Positions 161-16,530 are shown, counted from the stretch's first letter. The stretch is DNA of 24,174 bases from Candidatus Bipolaricaulia bacterium (GCA_046758705.1 JBHIAT010000039.1:1-24174), one strand, 5' to 3'. The notes: generated by a model not told the origin, from the letters alone. Numbers and translations: made by a program.

Positions 161-439
161 ATGATCGAATCTTTCAAACACAAGGGTCTAAGAAGGTTTT
201 TTGAAAAGGGTGATAGCTCGAAGATTCAGCAAGCTCACATAAGGCGTTTGAGATTAATACTCACTCAGCTTCATGCCGCAAAAGAGATAAGAGATATGAA
301 TTTTCCAGGTTCAAACTTGCATATGCTGACCGGAGACAAAAAAGGTTTCTGGTCAGTGAGTGTGAGCGGTAATTGGCGGGTAATATTTCGGTTCGAAGAT
401 GGACATGCTTATGACGTTGATTATTTAGATTATCACTAA
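161..439 (+). CDS. higB: HigB toxin (RelE/ParE superfamily)
   Basis: MIESFKHKGL...LHMLTGDKKGFWSVSVSGNWRVIFRF...VDYLDYH is the typical HigB pattern, and the toxin lies upstream of the antitoxin. Confidence 0.95.
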   Translation: MIESFKHKGLRRFFEKGDSSKIQQAHIRRLRLILTQLHAAKEIRDMNFPGSNLHMLTGDKKGFWSVSVSGNWRVIFRFEDGHAYDVDYLDYH

Positions 440-451
440 AAAGAAAGGAAC

Positions 452-763
452 ATGAAAATGCATATGCATAAACCGGCACATCCCGGGGAGGTTTTGAAAG
501 AGTTGTATTTAGAGCCCCTTGAATTGACGGTAACGGATGCGGCCAAAGCTCTTGGTGTGACGCGTAAGACTTTGTCTGAACTAGTCAACGGCCGATCGGG
601 AGTCAGCACGTCAATGGCTTTACGACTGGCGAAGGCTTTTGGGACGACGCCGGAGTTATGGCTTAAAATGCAGCAGAATTTTGATTTGTGGACTGCCCGA
701 AAGAGAACGAAGCTTTCGGAAGTAAAGGTTCTATTTTCAGCCGATCCGTCATTGAACGGTTAA
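452..763 (+). CDS. higA: HigA antitoxin (XRE-type HTH)
   Basis: HPGEVLKE..L, AAKALGVTRKTLSELVNG, MALRLAKAFGTTPELWL..Q motifs. AAGGA RBS. Confidence 0.95.
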   Translation: MKMHMHKPAHPGEVLKELYLEPLELTVTDAAKALGVTRKTLSELVNGRSGVSTSMALRLAKAFGTTPELWLKMQQNFDLWTARKRTKLSEVKVLFSADPSLNG

Positions 764-1715: not shown

Positions 1716-2519
1716 TTAGAGAATATTTCGGATCGCACCGCCGTCGACTTGGATCACCGCTCCGGTGATGAAGTCTGCGGGTTCGGAGGCGAGAAATGCG
1801 ACGAGCGCGGCGAGCTCCTCTGGATTTCCCAGCCGGCCAGCCGGAATCTGGTCGGTCCATGAGCGGCGCACCGCCTCGATCGAGATCCCACCCCGATCGG
1901 CCTGAGCGTTGATCAATTGCTCCATCCGCTGGGTCGCCGTCGATCCGGGGCAGACGCAGTTGACCCGGATACCGTCCCCGGCCAGCTCCTGGGAGAGGGT
2001 CTTCGCCAACCCAAGGACCGCCGTCCGCACAGCGTTCGACAGGATCAAATTGTCGAGCGGCTGCTTGACCGTAATGGAGGTCACATGGACGATTCGGCCC
2101 CAGCCGTTGGTTTGCATGTGGGGGATCACTTGGCGGCACAGGTGCACTGCGCTCATCACCAGCAGTTGAAACGCGTGCTCCCAGTCGGCGTCATCAACGT
2201 CAAAAAACCCACCCGGGGGCGGCCCTCCGGCGTTGGTCACCAGAATGTCGACCGGACCGAACGCCTCGACGGTCCGATCCACCAGGGTGTTGATCGCATC
2301 GGCATGTGTCAGATCGGTCGGCACCGCCAGCACCTCGGCCCCGGTCGCCTCCCGGATCTCCTCGGCCGTTTGCTGCAACTGTTCCTCGCCCCGAGCGCAG
2401 ATCGTGACGTTGACACCCTCCTCGGCCAGTCGGAATGCGATCGCCCGGCCCAGCCCTTGGCTGGCTGCGGCAACGACCGCGGTCTTTCCCGCAATGCCTA
2501 AATCCATATCGTCACTCAC
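1716..2519 (-). CDS. SDR family oxidoreductase (3-oxoacyl-ACP reductase-like)
   Basis: AASQGLG Rossmann motif, LVTNAGGPP, SNAVR in place of YxxxK, IRVNCVCPG and VDGG. The start may be ATG 2507. Confidence 0.92.
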   Translation of the reverse strand: MSDDMDLGIAGKTAVVAAASQGLGRAIAFRLAEEGVNVTICARGEEQLQQTAEEIREATGAEVLAVPTDLTHADAINTLVDRTVEAFGPVDILVTNAGGPPPGGFFDVDDADWEHAFQLLVMSAVHLCRQVIPHMQTNGWGRIVHVTSITVKQPLDNLILSNAVRTAVLGLAKTLSQELAGDGIRVNCVCPGSTATQRMEQLINAQADRGGISIEAVRRSWTDQIPAGRLGNPEELAALVAFLASEPADFITGAVIQVDGGAIRNIL

Positions 2520-2573
2520 CTCGGCTTTGTGATAAGATCTATCTTACCGGTTCATCGGGCGTTGCTTCAATCT

Positions 2574-4328
2574 TCAATGTTTGACCACGCAGAACTTGAG
2601 CCCGATGATCTCCAACGGGTGGCTGTTATCGGGTGAGTGGACGATCATTCGGCCACGTTCGAAGTAGGGCAGGGCCCGCTGGTACTCAGGTGGCGCCCCG
2701 GCCTTCTCGGCCATCTTGCGCTCCATGCCGAGCAGGATCCGGTTGCTGATTTGGGAGAGTACCCCCTCGTTGATGTCCTGGGGGTTCTGGCTGATGAGGA
2801 CCAACCCCAGTCGGTTCTTGCGCCCTTGCTTGGCGGCGTTGACGAACTTCTCGGCGATGGCCTTGTCCTGTTGGGTATCGAGTGAGGTGAGGTAGTTATG
2901 CGCCTCATCGACCGCCAGGATGATCGGGTACCGGGCGATCCGTCTCCCCCATGGCCGGTCGACCGTCCGGGTCTTGGCGTCGGCGATCATCGACATCACC
3001 GTAAGCACCATCACCCGCTCGGCCGTGGCGCTCAGATGATCGGTGGGGAAGACGCTGACAATGTCCTCGTCGAACATCTCCTCGTAGAGCTCGGTGATCG
3101 GGTTGCCGCCGTCCTGATCGAAGATCCGCGCGAAATGAGGCTTGTCAACTCGGCGACGGAGCGCCTTGAACGTGGCCGGGTGGATCGTCCCCTGCTCGGC
3201 GTACCGCTCCATCAGTTCGTTATCTTGGATGAACGCCTGAAAGTCGGCGTAGCGATGATCTCCTTCGCGACCGAAAAACACCTTCACCAGCATCACCAAG
3301 GCGTCGTACTGGCTCTCGTTCAGATCACCGCCGGCGATCATGTACGGGAACTCGTCGACGAGTTCAAACGGGATCGTAAACGGTGTGTATCGGTCGGCTC
3401 CGCGGTATCGGGCCCCGTGCTCCACCGCGGCGAACACCCGCAGGGAGTTCCCGATTCCGCCAATCTTGACCCCTTGGGCGAGCAACGCTTTTCGGTCCTC
3501 CACTTCGATGAGGCCGGCCTCGCTCATCATGTGGTACTCGTTCTCGGGATCGATCACGACGATGCACGGCTTGCGCTCGACGCCGCCTCGCCGCTCCAGC
3601 CGGTAGGTGGAACCGACGATCTGTCGCAGAAAGTTCTTGGCGACGTGGGTCTTGCCCCGACCGCTCATCCCAGCGATCAGCGTATGGATGAAAATCAGCG
3701 GATCGCCGGTTCTGTCCGGATCATTGCGCAGGTAGTAAGGGACGTAAATCCCGCCGCTCACTTCGATCGTCTCGCCGTTGACGGCCACATATCCGAGGAA
3801 CAGCCCATCGTCCGGGATATCCAGGCCGGTTTTCACCTCATCCTCGCTGGCTACCCGGCGGACGATCGTGTTCGGCTTCGGAATGTAGCGGACCTCCGAG
3901 ACCTTGAGGTCATCGCCAAACATCGAGATCGGATGCAGCTTGGCGGTCTCGATGTACTCGTCCTCGCCGATGTGATCGGCGTTGACGAGTGTGTAAACCT
4001 CATTCATGTCATCGATGGCGTTCCGCTTTATATAGGCGAGACTCTCGATGCGGGCAAAGATCCTCTGTGCCTGGTAGCCAAGCGGGATGACCACATAATC
4101 CCCGATCGCTACCGCATCGCGGCGACTCTCCGGGATGTAGGCATGGATGTTCGAATCGGTGATGCTCAACGACAGTTGTTCCGGGATGACGATCCGACCG
4201 ATCTCCTCATCGACGAACTCCCGCCACTCCAGTCCCTCGATCTCACGGAGCGGGATCTTATCCGTTCCCGTCCGTTCGGTTCGCCCCACCCGGGACAACT
4301 TGCGCTCCAGTTCCAGATCATTCGCCAT
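2574..4328 (-). CDS. herA: HerA ATPase/helicase (HAS barrel plus FtsK/HerA ATPase)
   Basis: Walker A AGMSGRGKT, Walker B ILAVDEAH and KQGRK.RLGLVLISQNPQDI; N-terminal IGDYVVI barrel; context with nurA, rad50 and mre11. Confidence 0.9.
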   Translation of the reverse strand: MANDLELERKLSRVGRTERTGTDKIPLREIEGLEWREFVDEEIGRIVIPEQLSLSITDSNIHAYIPESRRDAVAIGDYVVIPLGYQAQRIFARIESLAYIKRNAIDDMNEVYTLVNADHIGEDEYIETAKLHPISMFGDDLKVSEVRYIPKPNTIVRRVASEDEVKTGLDIPDDGLFLGYVAVNGETIEVSGGIYVPYYLRNDPDRTGDPLIFIHTLIAGMSGRGKTHVAKNFLRQIVGSTYRLERRGGVERKPCIVVIDPENEYHMMSEAGLIEVEDRKALLAQGVKIGGIGNSLRVFAAVEHGARYRGADRYTPFTIPFELVDEFPYMIAGGDLNESQYDALVMLVKVFFGREGDHRYADFQAFIQDNELMERYAEQGTIHPATFKALRRRVDKPHFARIFDQDGGNPITELYEEMFDEDIVSVFPTDHLSATAERVMVLTVMSMIADAKTRTVDRPWGRRIARYPIILAVDEAHNYLTSLDTQQDKAIAEKFVNAAKQGRKNRLGLVLISQNPQDINEGVLSQISNRILLGMERKMAEKAGAPPEYQRALPYFERGRMIVHSPDNSHPLEIIGLKFCVVKH

Positions 4329-4365
4329 GGCTCACTCAGTCTCCTTTTGGTGATCGAGCCTTTAT

Positions 4366-4854
4366 CTAATCCTCGTTTCTATCCCGGTTATTGGAATCCT
4401 TCTGTCGGTACTCCATGATCGCGATCCGGGCTTTCAGCTCCACGACGATCTCGTGAAGCGTCTCAATCCGATCTTCGAGCCGTTGGATCCGGTGGTCTCG
4501 TTCCCCAATCACTCGATCGCGTTCCTCAGCGATCCCGCGCCAGTAGGCTTCAGATCCAGAAGGCCTCGTTTGCGTTGGATTGTGATCCTTTCGATTCGAT
4601 TCGTCGATGCTGGGCAAGCCCTTCGTCTCCCGCTCAATTCGCTCCACCGCGCTTTGCAGGCTCTCCCCAAGTTTTTCGTATTCCCGCAACCGTTCCAGGA
4701 TAAGGTAGCCGTCATGGGAGATTTCCCAACGATTGAAGATCCCTTTTCGGATGTCCGATCCGAGCGGATCGGCCAGCTTGTCGATGCGAGTGCGCACCTG
4801 GTTTTCGTTGAGCTCAAGCAGATCGGCCAGCTGTTTGATGGTAAACACTTTCAA
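4366..4854 (-). CDS. MerR-like HTH plus coiled-coil putative DNA-binding protein
   Basis: FTIKQLADLLELNENQVRTRI HTH; C-terminal heptads RDHRIQRLEDRIETLHEIVVELKARI; TTG start after GAAGG. Confidence 0.7.
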   Translation of the reverse strand: MKVFTIKQLADLLELNENQVRTRIDKLADPLGSDIRKGIFNRWEISHDGYLILERLREYEKLGESLQSAVERIERETKGLPSIDESNRKDHNPTQTRPSGSEAYWRGIAEERDRVIGERDHRIQRLEDRIETLHEIVVELKARIAIMEYRQKDSNNRDRNED

Positions 4855-4980
4855 AACACCTTCTCAACGCTCGTTGCGCCATTTGATCCAAGCCGGTGCC
4901 ATGATCGTAACCGATCTCAATCGATTGAGCTTCTCAGGATAACGGTTCTTAGATCATCTCGACCAATCCCACGTTGAAAT

Positions 4981-5009
4981 ATACTAACATCAATTCGGGG
5001 ACTTTGCAA
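4981..5009 (-). promoter_or_regulatory. Internal sigma70 promoter for the HTH gene and herA
   Basis: Minus strand TTGCAA(5009-5004)-17 bp-TAGTAT(4986-4981). Confidence 0.6.
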
Positions 5010-5178
5010 CTGGATGGTGCATTGCTCCGTTTCACATCGGTTTGATCGGCCGTTATGAAGGTGAAACGAAGGGCGTAGGGTTGGCACTTTCAGGTCGGTT
5101 CTGGAAATCGCCCTGTTCTGGAAAGTTCATAGGTTCTGAATCTCCTCGATGCGATCGATTGAGGGGGGCTCAGACAGG

Positions 5179-6408
5179 TCAGAGGGGTTCACCGCGGCTC
5201 TGATTGTAGAGCGTGTCGGGGAGCATCCCGGAGCTCCGGATGAGTGCCTCCCGCTCCACTTGGGTGACCCGTGCTTGGCTGTCAGCGACCCGAATCACGT
5301 TGGGGACACCCTTCCCCCGGGCGATCTCCGAAAGCACCTGCAGACGCAGCCGATCAGGGTCCTGGTTCTGGAGGATGGTGTACGGGGTTTCGACCTTGAG
5401 AACGCTCTCGACCCGGGGATCGTAGACGAAGAAGTAGCAGACGTGGTAGACGTCCGGAGCAAGTCGTTTTCGGAAGTTGCTCAACTGAGAGAACAACTCG
5501 AAGCCCTGCGCCCCGCTCACCCCCCGCGATGGATACTTGACCTGGACGAACCAACCGGTATAGCCGAGGTTGTCGGCCGGGATTTCATCGAACAGGGCCG
5601 CGATGAACTGACGATCGTTCGCCCAGGTGCTATCCTCCAGGCAGAATTTGATCAGGTATCGGGTGCTCGGCGTCTTGTTGATTCCAACGTACGGCGTGCC
5701 AAGCTCGGCATACCGCTCGGCGATCTCAACATACTGCTGTAGGATCTCGGTTCCGTGCTCCCAGGAGCCGATCCCGATGTCCCAGGCCCAGCGTGCATCG
5801 TCCACGAGATAGTAGTAGAGCCCGATCGGATAGATTCCCCCGTCGAGGAAGACGAGATCTTCCGGCCCTAAGCGGAGTCGATCGGTCATCCTCAGCAGAT
5901 GGCGTGCCTCACTGGCGGCATCGGCGAGGCCCTTGACGACCGGGTCGACCTTGCGTCTCAGGTACTCCCGAGGGATATGGATGCGCCACAGATCGACCAG
6001 ATCTCCGGTGTAGTAGGATGACAGGTCGCGATCTTCGGGATCGAAGGAGTGCGTAGCCAGGGAGACGGTCCGGAACGCCTCCAGCGGCAGGCCGTCGAAC
6101 TGGATCGTGCTGTCGCTCGACAGCACCGCCTGATTGGCACAGATGGTCATCCCGTTTCGGAAATGCATCGGACGGGTGCTCCCCCCGTCCAGGCCGTAGA
6201 CGACTCCGGACTCCGTTGCAGTCCAGCTGGCCAGTTCGAGGATCGGCGAACGAAGACACTCGGGATCGGTGTACGCGCTCACCCCGGCGGACAGGTTCAA
6301 TCGGTGGAAGCGTCGATGCGCCTCCCGGCCGTAGTCTTTGGTCCGCTTACGAATCGTTATCTCCTGAACCTGTGTCTGAAACACTTTGCGGACATCCGAT
6401 GACAGCAC
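5179..6408 (-). CDS. nurA: NurA 5'-3' nuclease
   Basis: YGLDGGS and VFLDGG catalytic Asp motifs, GINK, and C-terminal GVPNVIRVADSQARV; lies directly downstream of rad50. Confidence 0.88.
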   Translation of the reverse strand: MLSSDVRKVFQTQVQEITIRKRTKDYGREAHRRFHRLNLSAGVSAYTDPECLRSPILELASWTATESGVVYGLDGGSTRPMHFRNGMTICANQAVLSSDSTIQFDGLPLEAFRTVSLATHSFDPEDRDLSSYYTGDLVDLWRIHIPREYLRRKVDPVVKGLADAASEARHLLRMTDRLRLGPEDLVFLDGGIYPIGLYYYLVDDARWAWDIGIGSWEHGTEILQQYVEIAERYAELGTPYVGINKTPSTRYLIKFCLEDSTWANDRQFIAALFDEIPADNLGYTGWFVQVKYPSRGVSGAQGFELFSQLSNFRKRLAPDVYHVCYFFVYDPRVESVLKVETPYTILQNQDPDRLRLQVLSEIARGKGVPNVIRVADSQARVTQVEREALIRSSGMLPDTLYNQSRGEPL

Positions 6409-6414
6409 TTGAGC

Positions 6415-9273
6415 TCACCTCACCTGCTCGATTACGCTGATGTTGTCGCTCCGTTTGCGCGCGTGGTACTCATGGTCGGCACTCTCGACCAGGGCGGCGT
6501 CGTGAGAGACGAGGATCACCTGGCCGATCCGCCGGCCGAGATCCTCCAGTAACCGTTGCAGTCGCTGAATTCGGCTGCGATCCAGATAGATCGTTGGCTC
6601 GTCGAGGATCAACGGGGTTCGGGTGATCGCCCGGGAGAGCACCTGGTGGATTGCTGCCCGCAGCGCGATGTTAATCAACGCCCGTTCGCCACCGGAGAGG
6701 ATCGCTGGATGGATCGCCTCCCCGTTCTTCAGGAAGACCTGGATGCCGTAGTCGTCGTCGATTTGGACACCGCTGTAGCTGTCGCCCGAATCCATGAGCG
6801 TGAAGAACCGTTCAAAGTAGAGGTTCAACGCCTCCAGGTTTCGCTTGCGAAACTCCCGTTTGATCACCCCATAGGTCTCGATGATCTCGTCGAGTTCGCC
6901 TGCGATCCGGTCGAACCGTTCGGCTTTGTTGTGGAGCATCTCCTGTTGTTCTTTGCGCTTCTGGAACATCTCGATCCGGCTCTCTACCGTACCGCGGCGG
7001 TGAACCAACCCATCGCGTTCTTCCCCGAGCTGTTCCCGTCGCCCCGTCAATTCGGCAACGTGATCCTCAATCACCTTTAGTTGCTCCTCAAGTTCCGTTC
7101 GATCTCCCACCTCAAGCTCCTGAGTCAGTTCAAAGTGCTTGGCTCGCAACATCTCCAGGTCGCGCCGCAGATCGTCGATCCGCTCACGCACACCCGAGCG
7201 CATCTCCTTACGATTGATGGTCCGATCCCGAAGCCGGATGGCCCTGTTAGCCAGCGCCTTAACCTCCTCAAGGGCGTTCAGTTGCGCCTCCACCTCGTCA
7301 AACCGTCGGTTCAAATCGGTGATTTGGGCCTCAAGTGCCTTCCCCCGCTCTTCGGTCGCGTGAAGTTCCTCCTCGGTCCGCTCACGTCGTTCTTTATGTC
7401 CCTCGATCTGTGTCTCCCGGGTTTCGATCTCACGCTCGTCCTGCTCGATCCCGACGACCCGTTCCTCGAGCCGAGCGCGTATGCCCCGCAGTTCCGATCC
7501 GATCAGTTCGAGTTGGTTGACGGCCTGTTCATCGGCCTTGAGCCCTTCGATGCGGCCGGTGAGGTCCGCCAGTTGCTCCTCATCGTTGCTGATCTTCTGG
7601 GTCAGCTCATTTCGGTGAATCTCCAGATGATGGAGCGTGTCTGTGAACGTCTCCTCGGTCACCGCTTGTCCGCAGGTCGGACATCGGCCCGCTTCGACCA
7701 ACTGTTCTTTGTTCGACAGCTCCTTGTCGATCTCGGCTTGTTGCGTTCGCCGTTCGACCAACCGTTCTTTGACCGCCTCCTGCACTTCCGCGACGGTCGC
7801 CAGTTGCTCGGTCACCTGGTCACGGAGCGCCTTCAGATCAAGTTCGGAGAACCTCTTGGGCGCTGGAAGCTCCACGGTCAGTTCGGGAAGTTTCTCATCG
7901 GCGGCCGCCTCCTGACCCTTGATCTGTTCCTCGAGTGCTGCCTGCTGTGACCGTTCGGCTTCGAGTTGATCTCGTGCCTGTGCGAGTCCCTCTTTATCCG
8001 ATTCCAGTTGGGTATCGATATCTGTGCTTGTATCCGTCAGCCGCTTCCGCTCCGACTCCAGCCGGGTCACCTGATCGCGGAGCGCCTGACGCTGGGTCTG
8101 AAGCGACTCGACTTCGGCCTGTCTCTCAGCCAGCTCGATCCTGAACTCGGGGACTTCCTCGATTCCGGCGGCGGTCTCCAGAGCTTCCAGAATCGTCCCT
8201 TCCTCAGCCCACAGCATCCCGCCAAGGTCTGAGACCATCTCTTGATGCTGCAATTGGAGTTCCTCGATCTCCAAAGTTAGCTCCTTCTGCCGATCGAGTT
8301 GTTCCTGGAGTCGGTCCTCCTTCTCCGCGATCGACGCCTCGGTCGTCTCGAGTTCCTGTTTTGCCGCATCGATCCGTTTCAACCGTTCATGGTGCTCGGC
8401 CCGACGGCGTTCCGCCCCTTCAATGCGCGCATCGAGATCCTTTAACTCCCCTCGTATCTCGTCCAGTCGTCGCTCTAGCTCGGCTCGCTTCTGCTCCAAG
8501 CTCTCGCCCTCCAGGTCGGCGATCTCCGTCTCGATATCGTTCAGCTTGCTCTTTACCACATCCCGCTGGCGGTTGACCGCCCGGCGGGCGCCCTGTTTCG
8601 CCCGGGTTACGTAATCGTCGAGCCGCTCCAGCCGCAGCAGCCGATCGATCATCCGCTTGCGTTCCTCCTCACCTGCCTTGATCAGCCGGTCGATCTCACC
8701 CTGGCGGATATAGATGCAGTTCACGAAGTCGTCACGGTCCATGCCGAGCTGCTCCTCGATCGCGGTGGTGACGTTCTCCACCCCGACCCATTTCTGGCCG
8801 TCGTCTCGCTCCAGCCAGCATCCCTCCCGCTCAGAGATCACCGAGCTTCCGCTGCGCCGCATCCCCATCCGGACGGTGTAACGGTGCTCTCCGTGATCGA
8901 ACGTCAGCTCGACGTGCCCTGAACGGGCCGCTTCGCGCAGGATGTGGTGGAGCGGCCGGCCCATCACTGGACTCGCTTTGCTGCCGTAGAGGGCGAAGAA
9001 AATGCTCTCCAGCAGAGAGCTCTTCCCCGAGCCGTTCGGGCCGGCGATGATCGTCGTCCCCGTCTCGAATGAAACCTGCTCCTGCTTATAGCACATGAAA
9101 TTGCTCAGCTCGACCGAGACGATCCGCATCCGATCGCGGTCTCGGTCCAGGTCTCTGAGGGACGAGGGGGCCATCGCGATCTCCAGATCCCGGTCCGGAT
9201 CCAGGGCTTCCGGTTCCCCGGCCTTATCTCCCTCATCCTTCATCAGGTCGAGCAGGCTGGGTTCATCATTCAT
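6415..9273 (-). CDS. rad50: Rad50 (SbcC-like) SMC ATPase
   Basis: GPNGSGKSS, Q-loop YIRQGEI, long coiled coils, central zinc hook CPTCG, LSGGE signature, LILDEPT and LVSH. Confidence 0.95.
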   Translation of the reverse strand: MNDEPSLLDLMKDEGDKAGEPEALDPDRDLEIAMAPSSLRDLDRDRDRMRIVSVELSNFMCYKQEQVSFETGTTIIAGPNGSGKSSLLESIFFALYGSKASPVMGRPLHHILREAARSGHVELTFDHGEHRYTVRMGMRRSGSSVISEREGCWLERDDGQKWVGVENVTTAIEEQLGMDRDDFVNCIYIRQGEIDRLIKAGEEERKRMIDRLLRLERLDDYVTRAKQGARRAVNRQRDVVKSKLNDIETEIADLEGESLEQKRAELERRLDEIRGELKDLDARIEGAERRRAEHHERLKRIDAAKQELETTEASIAEKEDRLQEQLDRQKELTLEIEELQLQHQEMVSDLGGMLWAEEGTILEALETAAGIEEVPEFRIELAERQAEVESLQTQRQALRDQVTRLESERKRLTDTSTDIDTQLESDKEGLAQARDQLEAERSQQAALEEQIKGQEAAADEKLPELTVELPAPKRFSELDLKALRDQVTEQLATVAEVQEAVKERLVERRTQQAEIDKELSNKEQLVEAGRCPTCGQAVTEETFTDTLHHLEIHRNELTQKISNDEEQLADLTGRIEGLKADEQAVNQLELIGSELRGIRARLEERVVGIEQDEREIETRETQIEGHKERRERTEEELHATEERGKALEAQITDLNRRFDEVEAQLNALEEVKALANRAIRLRDRTINRKEMRSGVRERIDDLRRDLEMLRAKHFELTQELEVGDRTELEEQLKVIEDHVAELTGRREQLGEERDGLVHRRGTVESRIEMFQKRKEQQEMLHNKAERFDRIAGELDEIIETYGVIKREFRKRNLEALNLYFERFFTLMDSGDSYSGVQIDDDYGIQVFLKNGEAIHPAILSGGERALINIALRAAIHQVLSRAITRTPLILDEPTIYLDRSRIQRLQRLLEDLGRRIGQVILVSHDAALVESADHEYHARKRSDNISVIEQVR

Positions 9274-10321
9274 CGGATTCCGAACCTCCTGTCGCGGTCA
9301 GCAGTTTGTCCACCTCAGAATCGACGTTGGAATCGGCGATCTCTCGGTCGCGAGTGATGTGATCGATCTCCCGGGAGGTCTCGGAGAGTTCCATCCTGTC
9401 GAGTCGTTCTGAGACGGCCCGGTCAAGGTCGCCGAACTCGACGCTCACCTCGATCTGCTCCAGGCCGACATCGTCCTCGCGACGGTCTCGCACCTGGACC
9501 GCCAGCGCCCCGTTCGTCAGCCCGTACTCCTCGATCTCCTTGACGGTATGCCCTGACTTCTTCAGGTAGACGGCGACGACCGCTCCGGTCACGGGATGAG
9601 CGTCGATCCCTCGGATCGGGTCCTCGTTGCCCGCAATGTAGATGAACCGACGGGTGTCGAACTCCCGACGGGTCAGCCGACCGGTCTCCAGATCAATGAG
9701 GTTGAAACCGCGCCGTGCCACCTCATCCAAGCTCCAACGTTCGGTGCTGCCCGGATAGGTGATCAACACGCCATCCTGGCGCCAGACCTTATGCTGGTGG
9801 TAGTCGCCGAGCAGCACGATCCGCGCGCCGCAGCCGACGAGTGCCTCGAGCTTCAGCTCACCGTCAACGACCTGGACCTGATCGAGCATCTGGTGGGCCA
9901 CCAACACGCCGTCGTCGAGCTCGGGCAGTTCGATCTCCCGCCTGCCGCTGTAGTCAAGCCCGTAGACCACGATATCGCCCACGTAGGTCGGTTCAGCGCC
10001 GAGATGGACGGCGAGCCCTAGCTCAGCAAACAGATCGATCCACTGAGCCCCCCGCCGCCGCTCGTGGTTGCCGACGATCCCCAAGAATGGGATCCCGACC
10101 TGGTTCAGTTTGGTGAGTTCCCTGAGAACGTCGCCGAGGTCTTCGGTGCTGGGGTAGCGATCGTCGAACAGATCGCCGGCGTGGATCACTGCTGCCACCT
10201 CCTCTTCGATGGCGATCTGAATGACCTGGGCGAATGCCTGTGAGAAATCTTTGCGGCGGTCCTCCAGGCCGTACTGCCGTGTCCCGATGTGGGTGTCGGC
10301 GGTGTGAAGCACCTGGGTCAT
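9266..10321 (-). CDS. mre11: Mre11 (SbcD-like) metallophosphoesterase nuclease
   Basis: HTADTHIG, HAGDLFD, GNHE, AHQ, LGDYH and YPGSTE motifs; the stop overlaps the rad50 start. Confidence 0.95.
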   Translation of the reverse strand: MTQVLHTADTHIGTRQYGLEDRRKDFSQAFAQVIQIAIEEEVAAVIHAGDLFDDRYPSTEDLGDVLRELTKLNQVGIPFLGIVGNHERRRGAQWIDLFAELGLAVHLGAEPTYVGDIVVYGLDYSGRREIELPELDDGVLVAHQMLDQVQVVDGELKLEALVGCGARIVLLGDYHQHKVWRQDGVLITYPGSTERWSLDEVARRGFNLIDLETGRLTRREFDTRRFIYIAGNEDPIRGIDAHPVTGAVVAVYLKKSGHTVKEIEEYGLTNGALAVQVRDRREDDVGLEQIEVSVEFGDLDRAVSERLDRMELSETSREIDHITRDREIADSNVDSEVDKLLTATGGSESDE

Positions 10322-10355
10322 GACATGTTACCTTGCTTTGCCTTTCCTTAGTCCT

Positions 10356-10384
10356 ACTCTATCCGAACATAACGCGGTTGTCAA
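10356..10384 (-). promoter_or_regulatory. sigma70 promoter of the mre11 operon
   Basis: Minus strand TTGACA(10384-10379)-17 bp-TAGAGT(10361-10356). Confidence 0.7.
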
Positions 10385-10407
10385 CTGGAGTTCATCAGCT
10401 GGTGGCA

Positions 10408-10437
10408 TTGAACACTCCCGCGTCACTTCGCTACAAT
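10408..10437 (+). promoter_or_regulatory. sigma70 promoter of the DUF1802-nuclease gene
   Basis: TTGAAC(10408-10413)-18 bp-TACAAT(10432-10437). Confidence 0.55.
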
Positions 10438-10507
10438 GGCTTGTGTCAAGAAACGGTCGCAACCTGAAACTGAGACTGAAGTGCCCTGTGGCAATGGAGA
10501 GGCCATC

Positions 10508-11452
10508 ATGGAGTTCCCGTTGCAGCTTGCCGGGGGGGTCCCGGCGAAGGCGGAGATCATCGAGGCGTTGGCCACCGGTCGTCATCTCTTCCTGATCCGG
10601 AAACGAGCGAGACGGTCGAGCCTGTTCTTGCTCTATCCGTCCCTTTCACCCCCGTCCTTAAAGCGCTATCAGGAGATCCACCGACCGTGGCTCGCCCACC
10701 GTCGGCGGACCGCCGGGGAGCCGCCGATCGTCCGCTACCTGGCGACACTCGATCAGGCGGTTGAGGTCGAGAACGACGATCGGCTCTGGGAAGCGCTCGA
10801 ACCCTATTACGTCTGGTCCCTCGATGCCATCAGAAAATATCTCAACGGACGGGAGCGGGCGTATCTGTGGCTGGTGCGCGTCTATCGGTTGTCCGAGCCG
10901 GGGATGCTTACCAAGGGGGACTACCACGCCGGCGCCTGGGTGCGGCTCGCGGAGCCGATCGAGGTCGAACAGGCTGAGCCGACGCTCGAGGAAACGCGCT
11001 ATGTAAAACTTCGGGATGAGGTGGTCGGGATCGCCGAGGAGCTTCGCGTCGAGGGAGGGAAAACCTACGAACACAACCTGTTGGTCGATTATCTGGGCGA
11101 GCTCGGCGCGCAGCAGGGGTTCGAGACCGAGATCGAGGTGCCCTGCGGCCGGTTTAAAATCGATGTCGTGTGGCGACCGACCTACCGGGGGGCGGTGCCC
11201 CGGTATGCGTTCGAGGTCCACATCGGCGGAAACCTGCATAAGGATCTGGCGGCGCTCAAGCATGCCTATGATCTGTGGAACGCCCGAATCACACTGATTT
11301 CGACGGCCAAGGACGTGGAACGGATCTGTGACCTTGTCTCCGGGACGTTCCACGAGATCGAGGATGAGCTGAAACTGGTCGAGGCGGAGCAGTTCCGCCA
11401 CTATGTCCACTTCAAGCAGCGGTTTTCCGATCTGGAGCGGGTCTTCGGTTAG
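10508..11452 (+). CDS. DUF1802-like domain fused to a PD-(D/E)XK-type nuclease
   Basis: The N-terminal half has EALATGRHLFLIRK, FLLYPS, PYYVW, LWLVRVYRL..P and WVRL (DUF1802 pattern). The C-terminal half has H..L...G...GF...E...IDVVW...YAFEVH. Start 10508 follows GGAGAGG. Confidence 0.72.
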   Translation: MEFPLQLAGGVPAKAEIIEALATGRHLFLIRKRARRSSLFLLYPSLSPPSLKRYQEIHRPWLAHRRRTAGEPPIVRYLATLDQAVEVENDDRLWEALEPYYVWSLDAIRKYLNGRERAYLWLVRVYRLSEPGMLTKGDYHAGAWVRLAEPIEVEQAEPTLEETRYVKLRDEVVGIAEELRVEGGKTYEHNLLVDYLGELGAQQGFETEIEVPCGRFKIDVVWRPTYRGAVPRYAFEVHIGGNLHKDLAALKHAYDLWNARITLISTAKDVERICDLVSGTFHEIEDELKLVEAEQFRHYVHFKQRFSDLERVFG

Positions 11453-11493
11453 GTAATCCTAACCCGTTGAGAAAGGGGGCAGATGAATGAACT

Positions 11494-11637
11494 ATGCTCT
11501 GTGACAAGAGTTCATGCAATAGGCTTGAGGGTCATGCTGGGAGATGTAATAAGTACCCTAAAGAGAGCTTTAGCAGTCTACCTGAGGAAATATTTAAAAA
11601 GATAGATAAGACAGCCATGACGCGAGGGGCACAGCCA
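11494..11637 (+). pseudogene. N-terminal fragment of a BstXI-like restriction endonuclease
   Basis: LCDKSSCNRLEGHAGRCNKYP...KIDKTAMTRGAQ resembles the BstXI-family N-terminus as I recall it. The stretch is AT-rich and runs into the antisense of the integrase. Confidence 0.5.
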
Positions 11638-12093
11638 TTCCCCTGTGCGAGTGACGAACACCTCCTCAGAGTACGGCTGATAACCCCGTAAATCGATCCA
11701 TCGTCTCATAGTCTTAGTCAACTTAGCCCCCATGAAACAAACCCGATCCTTGGCCCCTTTGCCATGAACTTTCAGACTACGTTGGGCGCGGCTTAAGTCA
11801 CCGACTTCCAGGTTGATCAGTTCATTGCGTCGAAGCCCCACATCAAGGAACGTCAGGAGCATGGTGTAGTTTCGGAATCCCGTCCACCAGACAGGGTTTT
11901 TAGCCATGGCGATCAAGCCTTCTCTAGCCAGCCAGTTGAAGAACGCTTTGAGCGCTCGCAAGTAAATGGCGATCGTTGTGTTCTTTAAGCCCCGATCCTG
12001 TAAGTGAGCCAAGTAAGAACGAATGGTGAACGCCTTGATCTCAGATAGCGGAACCGTGCCCTGAAACTGCCCTTTACTGGACCATTTTTGCAT
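11634..12093 (-). pseudogene. Tyrosine recombinase (XerD/phage integrase-like) remnant
   Basis: SAM-like TIRSYLAHL...LRALKAFFNWL, catalytic-box DVGLRRNEL and VHGKGAKDR. The linker after KNP is missing, and there is no HxxR or catalytic Tyr. Confidence 0.85.
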
Positions 12094-12248
12094 GGATTGG
12101 GGAGCTAGGCGTGTGCAGAAGATATTAGGGGAAATGACGTTGGGGTGAGCAATACCGACAACTTGTTAGTGAAGCCGGTGGGCCTGACTTCTCGTTCTAA
12201 ACCGCCCCTGCTCCACCAACAAGCGATCCAGTCGCTGCTTGGTCTTAG

Positions 12249-13505
12249 TCATCGACCTGTCCTTGTTCCCGGTTCGCTACTGAGTTCGACTATCTTGGGG
12301 TCGGATTGAATCCTGCTGCGATAGGTTTGCAATCCCGCCGCCAGGATGTGGACCGCTCGCTCCAGCGCCTTTCGGTTCAGGACGTAGGCGATCCTGACCT
12401 CATTGATCCCCAGTCCCGGCGTCTCGTAGAAACCGGCGGCTGGGGCGAGCATCACCGTCTCCCCGTCGAGCTCGAAGTCGGTCAGCAACCACCTGGAAAA
12501 ATCTTCGGCATCGGCCACCGGCAGCTGGACGATGAGGTAGAACGCCCCCTCGGGTCGGGTGCAGACAACTCCAGGGATCTGGTTTATCATCCCGAAGAGC
12601 AGGTCCCGACGCCGCTTGAATCGTTCGATCATCTCGGTGACCTGACGCGGATAGGTTTCCGAGCTGAGGAGTCGGACCATCCCCAGCTGTTCCAGCGTCG
12701 GCGGGGAGAGCCGCGCCTGCGCCATCTTCAACGCCGAATCGATCACCTTCCGGCTCCGACTGACGATCGTTCCGATCCGTGCCCCACAGGCGCTGAACCG
12801 CTTCGAGATGCTGTCGACCAAGACGGCATGGCGTTCCAGTCCCCCCAGGTTCAGCACGCTGTGATGGGATCCCTCATAGACGAACTCCCGATAGACCTCA
12901 TCGGAGATCAGGAACAGATCGTGCTCCAGGGCGATCTCCTGCAGCATCTCCAGCTCTGCCTCGGTGTAGACGGTCCCGGTCGGGTTGCCGGGATGGGTGA
13001 TCAGGATCGCCTTCGTGGTCGGGGTGAGCTGCGATTCGATCGCCTGGCGGGATGGGAGTCGGAAATCCTGCTGGGCCCGGGTGGTGATCGGCGTGATGGC
13101 GACCCCGGCCATCCGGGCGTAGCTGCTGTAGTTGGTGTAGAACGGCTCCGGGATGAGCAGGGTATCTCCATGTTCCAGGGTGGCGATGATCGCAAACAGA
13201 ACCGCCTCGCTGCCGCCGATGGTGATGATCAGGTCATCGACCCCGACCTCGATTCCCACATCCGCGTAATAACGGACCATCGCCTCCCGCGCCTCGGCGA
13301 ACCCCTGGGACGGGCTGTAGGCCAGCACCTTGATGTCAGCCTCCCGGATCCCCGCCCAGAAAGGTTCCGGCGTCTCGATATCGGGTTGGCCGATGTTGAG
13401 GTGGTGGACGGTGATCCCGCGATCTTCGGCCCGGTCGGCGAGCGACCCCAGTTTGCGAATCGGGGAAGGACGGATCGAACGCGCTCGGTTTGAGATCTCA
13501 GGCAT
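12249..13505 (-). CDS. PLP-dependent aminotransferase, class I/II (aspartate aminotransferase-like)
   Basis: HLNIGQPD, HPGNPTG, ISDEVY and DSISKRFSACGARIG. The likely start is MPEISNRA at 13505 rather than 13601. Confidence 0.93.
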   Translation of the reverse strand: MPEISNRARSIRPSPIRKLGSLADRAEDRGITVHHLNIGQPDIETPEPFWAGIREADIKVLAYSPSQGFAEAREAMVRYYADVGIEVGVDDLIITIGGSEAVLFAIIATLEHGDTLLIPEPFYTNYSSYARMAGVAITPITTRAQQDFRLPSRQAIESQLTPTTKAILITHPGNPTGTVYTEAELEMLQEIALEHDLFLISDEVYREFVYEGSHHSVLNLGGLERHAVLVDSISKRFSACGARIGTIVSRSRKVIDSALKMAQARLSPPTLEQLGMVRLLSSETYPRQVTEMIERFKRRRDLLFGMINQIPGVVCTRPEGAFYLIVQLPVADAEDFSRWLLTDFELDGETVMLAPAAGFYETPGLGINEVRIAYVLNRKALERAVHILAAGLQTYRSRIQSDPKIVELSSEPGTRTGR

Positions 13506-13627
13506 GATGGAACACCCATACCTCCCTTCGGGATGGTAGATATTCTGAATTATAGCAGATCGAATGCCCTGACACCAAACCGGATCCAAGCCGGTGACCA
13601 CGTCGAAGCATGAAGGTGCGGATAGCC

Positions 13628-13656
13628 TTGACAGTCAGACGGGGGTGTGCTATACT
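13628..13656 (+). promoter_or_regulatory. Strong rRNA promoter
   Basis: TTGACA(13628-13633)-17 bp-TATACT(13651-13656) with an extended TG. Confidence 0.9.
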
Positions 13657-13689
13657 AAGGTCAGTCCATGGCAGAGAGCATAGGGATTC

Positions 13690-13711
13690 GGTCTTTGAAA
13701 AGTGGATAGCG
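13690..13711 (+). promoter_or_regulatory. boxA-like element and 5' arm of the 16S processing stem
   Basis: GGTCTTTGAAAA; 13695-13711 pairs with 15419-15435 (two G-U pairs). Confidence 0.75.
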
Positions 13712-13734
13712 TGGTGAAAGGACCCTTGAGATTA

Positions 13735-15361
<1,627 letters not shown>

Positions 15362-15418
15362 TTCACTCTTCAGAACTCCGGAGATCGATCCCAATCTCAC
15401 TGCCACATCTGAGTAGCT

Positions 15419-15451
15419 CGCTGTCCGCTTTTCAACCTTTTCTTTTTTCTT
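15419..15451 (+). other. 3' arm of the 16S processing stem followed by a U-rich tract
   Basis: CGCTGTCCGCTTTTCAA is complementary to 13695-13711 and is followed by CCTTTTCTTTTTTCTT. Confidence 0.7.
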
Positions 15452-15462
15452 CCCGCTTCGGC

Positions 15463-15768
15463 TCAAATCCTTCGACTTAATTCCAACAGGCTGCGGACGA
15501 CAAATTGCCGGACAAAGATGAGTATCAGGATCGCGATCATCGGCGAAAAGTCGATCATCATGTTCGGCATATAGCGGAATAGGAACCGCCTGATCGGAAA
15601 GAGGATCGGTTCGGTGATTCTGTATAGCATCTCAACGATCGGATTTTCGTAAGGGTTGCGGACAAACCACGAGACGATGGCCCGGATGACCAGAATGATG
15701 ATCATGACTTGAACGACAATGTTCAAGATCTGGGCGATCGCTTCGGTGAGGTAGGACAGAAAGATCAT
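15463..15768 (-). CDS. yggT: YggT family membrane protein
   Basis: IIILVIRAIVSW...NPIVEMLYRITEPILFPIRR...IDFSPMIAIL; TGATG coupling to yggS. Confidence 0.93.
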   Translation of the reverse strand: MIFLSYLTEAIAQILNIVVQVMIIILVIRAIVSWFVRNPYENPIVEMLYRITEPILFPIRRFLFRYMPNMMIDFSPMIAILILIFVRQFVVRSLLELSRRI

Positions 15769-16481
15769 CAATATCGCCTCCCTCCGAAGATCCCTGTGCC
15801 GATCCTGACCAGGTTTGCTCCCTCCTCGATCGCGATCTCAAAATCGTGGGAGATCCCCATCGACAGGTACCGCATCTCGACATTCTTGATCCGCTGCTCG
15901 GCCAGCGCCTCGAAACACGCCCGCACCGCTCGGAAGTGGCCGCGGATCTCTGCCTCCGCCTCGCTGTAGGGGGGCATGGTCATCAACCCCGTGATCCGAA
16001 GCCCGGGACACTCCGAAATGGCGGCCACCAGATCGGGACACGCCTCGACCGTGACCCCGTGGCGACCCGGATCCGGCGACGGGTTCACTTCAATGAGGAT
16101 CGGTACCTCCAATCCCCATCGTGTAGCGCACCGGCCCAACTCCTCAGCCAGCTCCAGCCGATCGATCGAGTGGATCATATCGAACAACCGGATCGCGGCC
16201 CTGGCCTTGTTCATTTGCAGATGACCGATAAAATGTTTCTCGATTGGGTTCGGCAGGAACTCGAACTTCCCCAAGGCCTCCTGGATCGTGTTTTCACCGA
16301 TCAGGTCGATCCCGGCCTCGACCGCGCGCAGAATCTCCCCGACGTTTCTCAGCTTCGTCGCCGCCAGAATCCGAATCTCATCGGGGGGACGGCCACCGCG
16401 CTCCGCTGCCTCGGCGATCTCAACCCGGAGCCGGGCGACGTTGCCAGTGATATCGATGTCGGTATCAGTGTTCGGTTCGAT
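15768..16481 (-). CDS. yggS: YggS/PLPBP pyridoxal phosphate homeostasis protein (start codon uncertain)
   Basis: The frame extends upstream of the listed start at 16274 through ILAATK and IGENTIQEA, then HFIGHLQ.NK, GLMTM, LSMGIS.DF..AIEEGA..VRIGT.IFG. Confidence 0.9.
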   Translation of the reverse strand: MEPNTDTDIDITGNVARLRVEIAEAAERGGRPPDEIRILAATKLRNVGEILRAVEAGIDLIGENTIQEALGKFEFLPNPIEKHFIGHLQMNKARAAIRLFDMIHSIDRLELAEELGRCATRWGLEVPILIEVNPSPDPGRHGVTVEACPDLVAAISECPGLRITGLMTMPPYSEAEAEIRGHFRAVRACFEALAEQRIKNVEMRYLSMGISHDFEIAIEEGANLVRIGTGIFGGRRY

Positions 16482-16530
16482 CGTCCCCGCCTCCTCTGCG
16501 ACTGCAAACCGGTTACCCCATTATAGCCAG

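Follow-up and report, generated by a model that had tools for sequence, protein, structure and literature searches.

Gene content of the window and organisation of the cluster

The stretch of DNA analysed here (the window) comprises 24,174 nucleotides (nt) and is the entire contig C39 of a metagenome-assembled genome (MAG) of Candidatus Bipolaricaulia bacterium (GCA_046758705.1, JBHIAT010000039.1:1-24174); all positions are given for the whole stretch. Open reading frame (ORF) calling identified four genes, mre11, rad50, nurA and herA, arranged co-oriented and head to tail on the minus strand from 10321 to 2574. The initial annotation, made from the sequence alone, had described them as a complete archaeal-type resection cluster in a bacterium, and the ORFs together with their Pfam identities bore out the four co-oriented genes. 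The features of the cluster are:

10356..10384, minus strand: promoter-like site TTGACA-17-TAGAGT, 10 of 12 consensus positions
9266..10321, minus strand: mre11, 351 amino acids (aa), Pfam Metallophos, halo-type Mre11 nuclease
6415..9273, minus strand: rad50, 952 aa, Pfam AAA_23/SMC_N/SbcC_Walker_B
9130..9273, minus strand: N-terminal extension of Rad50 (residues 1-48), with the motif S-L-L-D-L-M at residues 6-11
5179..6408, minus strand: nurA, 409 aa, Pfam NurA
2574..4328, minus strand: herA, 584 aa, Pfam DUF87/HerA and HerA_C, halo-type translocase

rad50 overlaps the mre11 stop by 8 nt and is followed by nurA after a further 6 nt. The gap between nurA and herA is 850 nt (4329-5178) and contains an additional frame, orfX, while in seven relatives the corresponding gap ranges from -17 to +75 nt. 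The four genes are presumably co-transcribed. The site TTGACA-17-TAGAGT, from which sigma70 control had been proposed, occupies 10384-10356 of the minus strand, and the ATG of mre11 follows 34 nt downstream of it. Promoter-like sites occurred five times in 9 kb in comparison to 1.9 +/- 1.4 in shuffled sequences; the site is thus only a consensus match and its function as a promoter is putative.

Mre11 and Rad50

The Mre11/SbcD phosphoesterases share the motifs DxH, GD, GNH[DE], H and GDxH.H, with metal-binding Asp, His and Asn residues. All of them are intact in the Mre11 of the window (DTH at 9, GDLFD at 49, GNHE at 84, HQ at 143 and GDYHQH at 172), and none of the residues D9, H11, D50, N85, H86, H143, D173 and H175 varies among 16 homologues. 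Together with the Pfam Metallophos match (E 1.3e-10) these motifs identify the protein as a calcineurin-like phosphoesterase of the Mre11/SbcD type. The best NCBIfam model was Mre11_Halo (NF041030) with 298.6 bits, against 68.7 bits for sbcd, and the score lies below the Mre11_Halo cut-off of 550 and thus outside equivalog membership. The TIGR sbcd model gave 61.9-68.7 bits, below its cut-off of 77.65, and spanned only the first ca. 100 residues. Also in the PDB sequence search the top matches were the Mre11 proteins of Pyrococcus furiosus and Methanocaldococcus jannaschii, ahead of SbcD.

Rad50 includes Walker A (GPNGSGKS at 78), the Q-loop (IRQGE at 189), the zinc hook (CPTC at 531), the signature motif (LSGGE at 859), Walker B (LILDEP at 888) and the H-loop (VSHD at 922), and with the AAA_23 and SMC_N matches it is identified as an SMC-like ATPase of the Rad50/SbcC type. 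The NCBIfam scores were 500.9 bits for PRK02224 (cut-off 1087), 450.6 for Rad50_Halo (NF041035; cut-off 1000) and 84.9 for sbcc (cut-off 478.5), which places the protein outside the PRK02224 and Rad50_Halo equivalogs.

NurA and HerA

NurA was recognised by Pfam (PF09376) with 56.6 bits against a cut-off of 21. It carries two DG motifs (LDGGS at 73 and LDGG at 188), of the kind described for NurA in the available part of PMC13748450, as well as ADSQAR at 375, and in an alignment of 33 sequences D74, E167, H170, D189 and D376 are invariant. The PDB sequence search gave no match for NurA at E <= 1. The AlphaFold2 model (mean predicted local distance difference test, pLDDT, 92.7) was matched by Foldseek best to the NurA of Sulfolobus solfataricus (E 2e-9) and then to those of Thermococcus kodakarensis and P. 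furiosus, while the Deinococcus radiodurans NurA ranked only 13th (E 6.9e-5). The Pfam score, fold, DG motifs and acidic residues jointly identify the protein as a NurA nuclease.

HerA matched Pfam DUF87 (PF01935) with 28.9 bits against a cut-off of 23.2 and has Walker A (GMSGRGKT at 220) and Walker B (VDEAH at 473). The PDB sequence search matched only its C-terminal 70-100 residues. With the AlphaFold2 model (pLDDT 88.2), Foldseek matched the protein over its full length to the HerA structures of S. solfataricus, T. kodakarensis and D. radiodurans at E ~1e-23 (5.7e-24 to 4d2i), with 560-646 aligned columns. The protein is thus a HerA translocase by Pfam score, Walker motifs and full-length fold. 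Pfam HAS-barrel was not detected in the HerA of the window and is recorded for five close homologues. All four proteins have intact catalytic motifs, and each of the peptide motifs quoted in the initial annotation was found in the translations (GNHERRRGAQWIDLFAELGLA, FVNCIYIRQGEI, LSGGERALINIALRAAI, DPLIFIHTLIAG).

Relatives outside the phylum

A scan with a profile built from Mre11 homologues, in which each prokaryotic species was represented by one genome, produced 497 confirmed relatives. The best 80 of these comprised 23 Bipolaricaulota-type MAGs, one Salinibacter MAG contig and 56 archaeal or archaeal-like sequences, the last belonging to Halobacteria, Methanosarcinaceae or unlabelled archaeal-like genomes with Mre11 identities of 37-45%. 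Some of the Bipolaricaulota-type MAGs have been labelled 'uncultured Thermotogae' by their submitters, erroneously. The Salinibacter sp. MAG contig (L024, 4.8 kb) carries halo-type mre11-rad50; either Salinibacter is one more bacterium with these genes, or the contig was assigned to the wrong bin.

For all four proteins the nearest relatives outside the phylum were found in Halobacteria and Methanosarcinaceae, with 24-45% identity. HerA is 38-41% and NurA 24-34% identical to the proteins of the window in five archaea with named genomes (Actinarchaeum halophilum, Haladaptatus salinisoli, Haloarcula montana, Methanosarcina sp. T3 and Methanimicrococcus hongohii). In a HMMER scan of 1.84 billion cluster representatives the HerA subfamily included 39 representatives at E <= 1e-30, followed by a gap down to E > 1e-12 for other full-length HerA. 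Within the Methanosarcina phylum halo-type Mre11 was present in 42 of 161 genomes (41 at E <= 1e-50 and G306 at 9e-40); the identical 42 genomes hold halo-type HerA, and about 100 others have only distant canonical Mre11. Judged by their sequences, the four proteins form a distinct subfamily, here called halo-type, together with those of Halobacteria and Methanosarcinaceae. The NCBIfam scores, the nearest relatives and the trees presented below all agree with the archaeal affinity that had first been read from the motifs.

The four linked, co-oriented genes of the window correspond to the archaeal four-gene cluster of double-strand break (DSB) repair. In the five named archaeal genomes, however, nurA and herA are adjacent to each other, and the distance between this pair and mre11-rad50 ranges from 34 kb to over 1 Mb. 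As the nearest archaeal main copies thus form two unlinked pairs, the four-gene linkage was not simply inherited from them. Linked sets do occur among second, more divergent haloarchaeal copies, where the order is mre11-rad50-nurA-herA as in the window: all four genes are present in L127 (G289) and L128 (G264), herA extends past the examined stretch in L126 (G163) and L129 (G212), and a 4.8-kb insert precedes herA in L132 (G185). Some of these second-copy sets are on contigs of ca. 200 kb, which may be secondary replicons. The same gene order was found in the archaeal loci L118-L120 and a herA-first order (herA-mre11-rad50-nurA) in L115, while in six canonical-type archaeal clusters (L102, L103, L107, L109, L112 and L113) a small ORF lies between nurA and herA.

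Distribution within Bipolaricaulota

The sample consisted of 151 genomes, all of one class and including the window genome, which is excluded from the following counts. Halo-type Mre11 was present in 31 genomes (28 at E <= 1e-90 and three fragmentary), and NurA and HerA in 29 each. By family the counts were:

f3: Mre11 16/16, NurA 15/16, HerA 14/16
f4: Mre11 7/9, NurA 7/9, HerA 7/9
f6: Mre11 4/4, NurA 3/4, HerA 4/4
f9: Mre11, NurA and HerA 1/1 each
f11: Mre11, NurA and HerA 3/3 each
families without the system: f2 0/43 and f10 0/1; for NurA and HerA f5 0/55, f7 0/14 and f8 0/4

The weak matches to the N-terminal part of Mre11 seen in f5, f7 and f8 were ordinary SbcD, and in f7 ordinary SbcD/SbcC (392/799 aa) adjoins a UvrD-PDDEXK protein. 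In a DnaN tree of 24 genomes one branch with a support of 100 parts f1, f3, f4 and f6 from f2 and f5; this tree is of a single marker, its groups are labelled by family-level presence, and it leaves out f7-f11. The four-gene system is an old trait of a clade, probably inherited vertically, and not private to the window genome.

The linkage of the genes varies within the clade. All four are together in the window genome and in L003, L006, L007, L010, L011, L012, L018 and L158; in genera g3 and g8 of f3 mre11-rad50-nurA are joined and herA is on a separate contig, and f11 has two pairs on different contigs. The synteny check suggested in the initial annotation found the same cluster in relatives, directly after polynucleotide phosphorylase (PNPase) and an M16 peptidase in L002, L004 and L005.

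Complementarity with AddAB-type nucleases

The PD-(D/E)XK nuclease domain (PDDEXK_1) is the domain of AddA, AddB, RecB and AdnAB. It was found in the families without the system (f2 43/43, f5 51/55, f7 12/14, f8 4/4 and f10 1/1), mostly in frames of ca. 1000 aa, and among the families with the system it was detected in 1/16 of f3 (a frame of 252 aa), 0/4 of f6 and 0/1 of f9. Within f4 the genomes without the system (G067 and G113) are those with PDDEXK_1 frames of 1191 aa. The window genome was searched with profiles over its contigs, a check that the initial annotation had called for: neither PDDEXK_1 nor RecC turned up in this MAG, nor did an additional SbcD, the RecB model matched only a UvrD-like frame of 665 aa, and SbcD/Mre11, NurA and HerA are each present as a single copy. 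Bacterial RecA, RecJ and RecR were above their cut-offs. The nearly exclusive pattern is consistent with the bacterial resection enzyme having been replaced long ago, the archaeal-type system presumably taking over its function.

Phylogeny and direction of transfer

The trees were quick IQ-TREE runs under LG+C20+F+G4 with posterior mean site frequencies (PMSF), and support was given by the Shimodaira-Hasegawa-like approximate likelihood ratio test (SH-aLRT). In the Mre11 tree (82 rows) the halo-type clade had a support of 100, and Bipolaricaulota with the Salinibacter contig (84; long branch) were sister to all archaeal halo-type sequences (93). The same tree joins the SbcD of f7 (L121-L123), with a support of 100, to the Mre11 of archaeal canonical-cluster genomes (L111, L116 and L118-L120), possibly another affinity across domains within the phylum. 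In the HerA tree (48 rows, rooted on 13 canonical archaeal HerA) both the halo-type clade and Bipolaricaulota were supported by 100, the latter as sister (84) to the unlinked copies of Halobacteria and Methanosarcinaceae (98), and the clustered archaeal copies fell outside. The NurA tree (52 rows) gave the halo-type clade a support of 98 and left three lineages within it as a trichotomy: the clustered archaeal sequences (88), Bipolaricaulota (100) and the unlinked archaeal sequences (99). No tree grouped the proteins with ordinary bacterial SbcCD, one of the outcomes by which the initial annotation would have fallen. Taken together, all four genes point to common descent with an archaeal system.

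The four proteins, Rad50 with its heads only, were also concatenated for 26 taxa and 1545 columns. With 10 canonical archaeal clusters as the root, this concatenate placed the unlinked archaeal copies (100) and Bipolaricaulota (100) together (96), with the clustered archaeal copies (99) as their sister. Three hand-built topologies were compared with the approximately unbiased (AU) test under LG+F+G4, the topologies within groups being fixed. The concatenate topology received p = 0.968, archaeal monophyly was disfavoured (p = 0.036, difference in log-likelihood 18.6), and so was the grouping of Bipolaricaulota with the clustered copies (p = 0.0003). The bacterial clade is thus probably nested within the archaeal diversity, which is a moderate result only because of the long outgroup branch, the deviant composition, the lack of a bacterial NurA-HerA outgroup and the disagreement of the Mre11 tree.

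The halo-type system could instead be bacterial in origin, from a Bipolaricaulota-like or an unsampled lineage, or stem from a third party, and have been passed to Halobacteria and Methanosarcinaceae, archaea that hold many bacterial genes. The system is patchy among archaea too, as it is present in only the 42 of 161 genomes mentioned above, with the distant canonical Mre11 in about 100; the Mre11 tree is reciprocally monophyletic and the NurA tree a trichotomy, and in the HerA and concatenate trees the depth of the bacterial clade equals that of the split between Halobacteria and Methanosarcinaceae. However, the concatenate and HerA trees put the clustered archaeal copies outside the group of Bipolaricaulota and main archaeal copies, the AU test speaks against archaeal monophyly, and the PDB and NCBIfam sequence scores favour archaeal Mre11 over SbcD. 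In addition, the system is limited to one side of the DnaN tree, the other families having ordinary AddAB-like and SbcCD enzymes, and among the best 80 of the 497 relatives no bacterial group other than the single Salinibacter MAG contig was present. We consider such a reverse direction unlikely, and transfer from archaea to bacteria is moderately supported. The cross-domain transfer of a whole machine, as initially proposed, stands with respect to the archaeal affinity of all four proteins; it was not a transfer into this genome alone, since the trait is old and present in about 30 of the 151 genomes, and its direction has the moderate support just described.

Host genome and integrity of the contig

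The MAG of the host, a member of Bipolaricaulota, totals 3.70 Mb in 319 contigs, with a completeness of 93.86% and a contamination of 4.69%. Upstream of the cluster the window includes:

11578..12093, minus strand: truncated tyrosine-integrase fragment, 171 aa, Pfam Phage_integrase (profile positions 20-105 of 172)
12249..13601, minus strand: class I/II aminotransferase, Pfam Aminotran_1_2, between the cluster and the 16S gene
13735..15353, plus strand: bacterial 16S rRNA gene, 1619 nt, Rfam SSU_rRNA_bacteria 1490 bits

The bacterial 16S rRNA gene lies 3.4 kb from the mre11 start, as had been noted initially, and is 80-87% identical to the 16S rRNA genes of genomes assigned to the same phylum and class. 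The named Mre11 homologues among the best 120 were all Fraserbacteria, Acetothermia, Bipolaricaulota or Bipolaricaulia (8/8, 52-62% identity), the names of the HerA homologues were of the same lineage, and those of the aminotransferase on the other side were all Bipolaricaulota, Acetothermia or Fraserbacteria (9/9 among the best 120, 55-64% identity). These matching names and identities on both sides indicate one lineage and one divergence depth for the whole contig. The guanine-cytosine (GC) content is ca. 0.60 throughout the cluster and flanks, with the exception of orfX.

Logan contigs of three runs of one study were compared over 2000-17000; the runs may be the source samples and are therefore not independent of the assembly, and a further run, X4, contained only a diverged relative and is not evidence of continuity. 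In run X3 one contig spans 2000-12007 with zero differences and a second one spans 12230-14076, reaching the first 340 nt of the 16S rRNA gene. The join between them (12007-12230) is a 266-nt unitig between branch points, at the truncated integrase gene. Depth is equal on both sides of the join in three runs, and in X3 it is about 10-12. The interior of the 16S rRNA gene (14076-15333) is covered only by short fragments of high depth.

A misjoining of an archaeal fragment to a 16S-bearing bacterial contig, in assembly or binning, would be suggested by the breaks and branches of the Logan contigs at 11984-12007 and 12230-12259, by a contig end left loose at 12259, by another contig that has 12175-12249 in common, by the fragmentary coverage within the 16S rRNA gene and by the contamination of the MAG. 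In opposition to this, the closest named relatives of the proteins left and right of the node are from one phylum, at 55-65% identity, the depth does not change across it in three runs, relatives carry the cluster on bacterial contigs up to 283 kb, beside PNPase and M16 peptidase, and the cluster proteins form a bacterial clade separate from every archaeal sequence. An artefact of this kind is highly improbable. Chimerism between the cluster and the 16S rRNA gene, which the initial annotation had named as fatal to its reading, is unlikely, the flanks being of the same bacterial lineage, even though read continuity to the 16S rRNA gene is incomplete; and as relatives have the same genes on long bacterial contigs, chimerism of the window would be immaterial to the main claim.

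Neighbouring genes and insertions

A further ORF was identified within the cluster:

4366..4854, minus strand: orfX, 162 aa, insertion between nurA and herA

Searches of orfX against Pfam, NCBIfam and PADLOC gave no match, and no homologue of it was found in any compared locus. Its local GC content is 0.54 in comparison to ca. 0.60 in the surroundings, and a promoter-like site is present at 4867-4838. The start of the frame reads like a helix-turn-helix (FTIKQLADLLELNENQVRTRI) and its end is a charged, coiled-coil-like stretch. It is not part of the conserved four-gene system. The small ORF in the canonical archaeal nurA-herA gaps (L102, L103, L109, L110, L112 and L113) encodes 160-194 aa, has no Pfam family and shows 21-85% mutual identity; identity of orfX with this conserved ORF was rejected, the best blastp match having E 4.6.

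Some relatives have genes inserted between mre11 and rad50: a DEAD-box helicase and a DprA-like protein in L002 (11231-15089), surface-protein genes in L005 (11182-15773) and a PIN-domain gene in L004 (4500-4934). The left end of the window, with a low GC content (0.46), contains a HigB-like toxin and helix-turn-helix antitoxin pair (161-763, plus strand). The integrase fragment coincides with the branch points of the assembly graph and may mark a strain-variable insertion site.

No tRNA was found in the window and no 23S rRNA gene beside the 16S rRNA gene. As neither is present within 8.8 kb downstream of the latter, the rRNA genes are unlinked. The 16S rRNA gene has 1619 nt against the 1533 positions of the model; the 16S rRNA genes of relatives align to it in two pieces, between which ca. 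100 nt (gene positions ca. 180-284) remain unmatched, and 13866-14038 and about 15228-15303 are missing from other contigs in the runs. Lineage-specific insertions in the gene are suggested by these gaps.

Lineage-specific tails of Mre11 and Rad50

The archaeal main-copy Mre11 is longer than that of Bipolaricaulota and ends in QxxMEDYL (Halobacteria) or QYNLGDYL (Methanosarcinaceae). Of 60 archaeal ORFs (L026-L081), 39 had the pattern Q..[LIVM]..[FYW][FYWL] at their very C-terminal end, and most of the others had near variants. The tail matches the archaeal consensus of the PCNA-interacting peptide (PIP) box and is a candidate for such a box. The motif was found in none of the 22 Bipolaricaulota sequences, and it is also missing from the archaeal second-cluster copies. 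For P. furiosus, binding of PCNA by the C-terminus of Mre11 has been shown experimentally, and matches in a motif search are reported, in the available part of the same paper, only in Thermococcales and Archaeoglobus fulgidus (PMC6009593).

The Rad50 of Bipolaricaulota has an N-terminal extension of 29-75 residues with the motif x-x-[SND]-L-L-D-L-[LFMW]. Exact LLDL is present in 16 of 19 N-termini and variants of it in the other three, and L7, L8, D9 and L10 are invariant or nearly so in the Rad50 alignment (A5). The NCBIfam Rad50 models begin to match the window protein at residue 49. The extension is absent in archaeal halo-type Rad50, in which Walker A is located at residues 30-32 in 57 of 59 ORFs, and it is missing also from the basal f11 locus (L022) and the Salinibacter contig (L024).

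The bacterial beta-clamp-binding pentapeptide has the consensus QL[SD]LF, and positions 2-5 of it are what the LLDL motif resembles; the DinB homologue of the host carries QLPLPLF near its C-terminus. These tails would be consistent with a rewiring of the machine from the archaeal to the bacterial sliding clamp, in which Mre11 would have lost its PIP box and the disordered tail of Rad50 would bind DnaN. We regard such a rewiring as doubtful. The f11 locus, which has neither the tail nor the four-gene linkage, would represent an intermediate stage in it. If true, the rewiring would be a natural example of an acquired repair machine plugged into a foreign replisome, and the loss of the PIP-like tail together with the gain of the Rad50 motif offers a concrete starting point for testing how a repair machine adjusts to a new host after transfer.

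Proposed origin and function

The likely explanation for these results is that the four genes are a chromosomal, intact module for DSB end resection, that the ancestor of one Bipolaricaulota clade acquired this Mre11-Rad50-NurA-HerA module from an archaeon of Halobacteria/Methanosarcinaceae kinship, and that the module was inherited vertically and took over the AddAB-like helicase-nuclease job of other families. By analogy with the characterised archaeal and Deinococcus systems, Mre11-Rad50 would recognise, bind and trim the DNA end. The hexameric translocase HerA would then feed the duplex to the NurA dimer, with degradation of the 5' strand and long-range 5'-3' resection, and the 3' tail would be handed to the bacterial RecA of the host via RecFOR-type mediators. 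Near-exclusivity with AddAB-size nucleases, single copies, host-like composition and housekeeping-gene neighbours favour such a core repair role.

Several points weigh against this explanation. The genome encodes RecJ, which could carry out resection by itself, and according to the available part of a 2026 review bacterial NurA-HerA complexes primarily degrade exogenous DNA (PMC13748450). The system and a PDDEXK_1 match occur together in f11 (3/3) and in some f4 genomes, although the overlapping frames are small where listed (240-535 aa; f11 272-281 aa), those of G060, G132 and G154 not being among the frames listed. As the MAG is ca. 94% complete, absence of AddAB/RecBCD means 'not found', and the absences in the other MAGs, incomplete as well, are to be read in the same way. 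All four NCBIfam equivalog scores are under their cut-offs. The trees come from a quick search mode only and do not include the bacterial NurA or HerA of Deinococcus, Thermus and Thermotoga; the Mre11 tree places the bacterial sequences as sister to all archaeal ones, NurA remains a trichotomy, and the AU p-value of 0.036 is marginal, with a long outgroup branch and many rows of deviant composition. To these can be added the branched join at the integrase fragment and the fragmentary coverage of the 16S rRNA gene.

The review cited above would also agree with a module working mainly in defence or degradation of foreign DNA, as has been proposed for some bacterial NurA-HerA and for HerA-effector antiphage systems, and not in recombinational resection. 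PADLOC gave partial HerA matches (best 69.8 bits, residues 460-534) and SMC-like LmuB and PbeC matches for Rad50, and the integrase fragment, the HigBA pair and the inserted orfX are nearby. However, PADLOC found no match for Mre11 or NurA and no system-level match for the cluster, and the HerA and Rad50 matches are to generic ATPase cores only. The cluster is not assigned to the antiphage Sir2-HerA or DUF4297-HerA systems, as the HerA match is partial (ca. 460-535) and no Sir2 or DUF4297 effector adjoins herA. The genes are single-copy, of host-like GC content and conserved in ca. 30 genomes beside housekeeping genes, and they are complementary with AddAB-size nucleases, as replacement of a repair function predicts, unlike a mobile defence island. 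A defensive role is for these reasons quite unlikely in comparison to acquisition of the module for repair.

The interpretation first given to the locus, an archaeal-type machine in a bacterium in which no RecBCD/AddAB was found, was partly supported: it was right in substance, and it needs re-dating, as the trait is old and clade-wide and its linkage variable. An entire bacterial clade appears to have exchanged the bacterial resection route for the archaeal one. Within a single phylum, and even within family f4, the one solution nearly excludes the other, which amounts to a natural replacement experiment. A literature search found no paper linking Bipolaricaulota, Acetothermia or Fraserbacteria with these genes, subscription-only papers and supplements being outside the search.

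Comparison with known systems

In textbook accounts bacterial DSB resection is carried out by RecBCD, AddAB or AdnAB, while Mre11-Rad50-NurA-HerA is the archaeal machinery. The SbcCD and AddAB/RecBCD/AdnAB enzymes carried by the sister families have the same presumed role as the system of the window, i.e. end processing and resection for RecA loading. The window differs from them in that its sbcd and sbcc scores are below the cut-offs and its genome gave no match to PDDEXK_1 or RecC.

Deinococcus radiodurans and Thermus thermophilus resemble the window host in having a NurA-HerA pair in a bacterium without RecBC-type enzymes, and the fold of D. radiodurans HerA matches that of the window protein (template modelling score 0.64). 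In these bacteria, however, NurA-HerA is apart from an ordinary SbcCD, whereas the window clade has four linked genes with an archaeal-type Mre11-Rad50, and the fold match of the window NurA to that of D. radiodurans is weaker than those to archaeal NurA.

A herA-mre11-rad50-nurA operon of thermophilic archaea (Sulfolobus, Pyrococcus) was reportedly described by Constantinesco et al. in 2004, a work cited in PMC7776575. It has the same four functions in one cluster as the window, and the HerA and NurA folds of the window match the solved archaeal structures. In the thermophile operon herA is first and in the window it is last, the identities in the fold alignments are 9-18%, and the host of the window is, unlike the thermophilic archaea, a bacterium with RecA and not RadA.

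The closest known systems are the halo-type ones of Halobacteria and Methanosarcinaceae. According to the available part of a 2020 review on Haloferax, H. volcanii lacks HerA and NurA (PMC7776575), but in a control search the Pfam NurA profile gave a match in the H. volcanii genome. With this match and a divergent HerA in every sampled genome with halo-type Mre11, the halo-type NurA-HerA subfamily seems to be under-recognised. The archaeal main copies differ from the window in forming unlinked pairs, in their longer, PIP-tailed Mre11 and in a Rad50 without the N-terminal extension. They have the same catalytic motifs as the window proteins and form with them a strongly supported joint clade in every tree, and the gene order of the window is shared by the haloarchaeal second-copy clusters (L126-L129, and nearly so L132).

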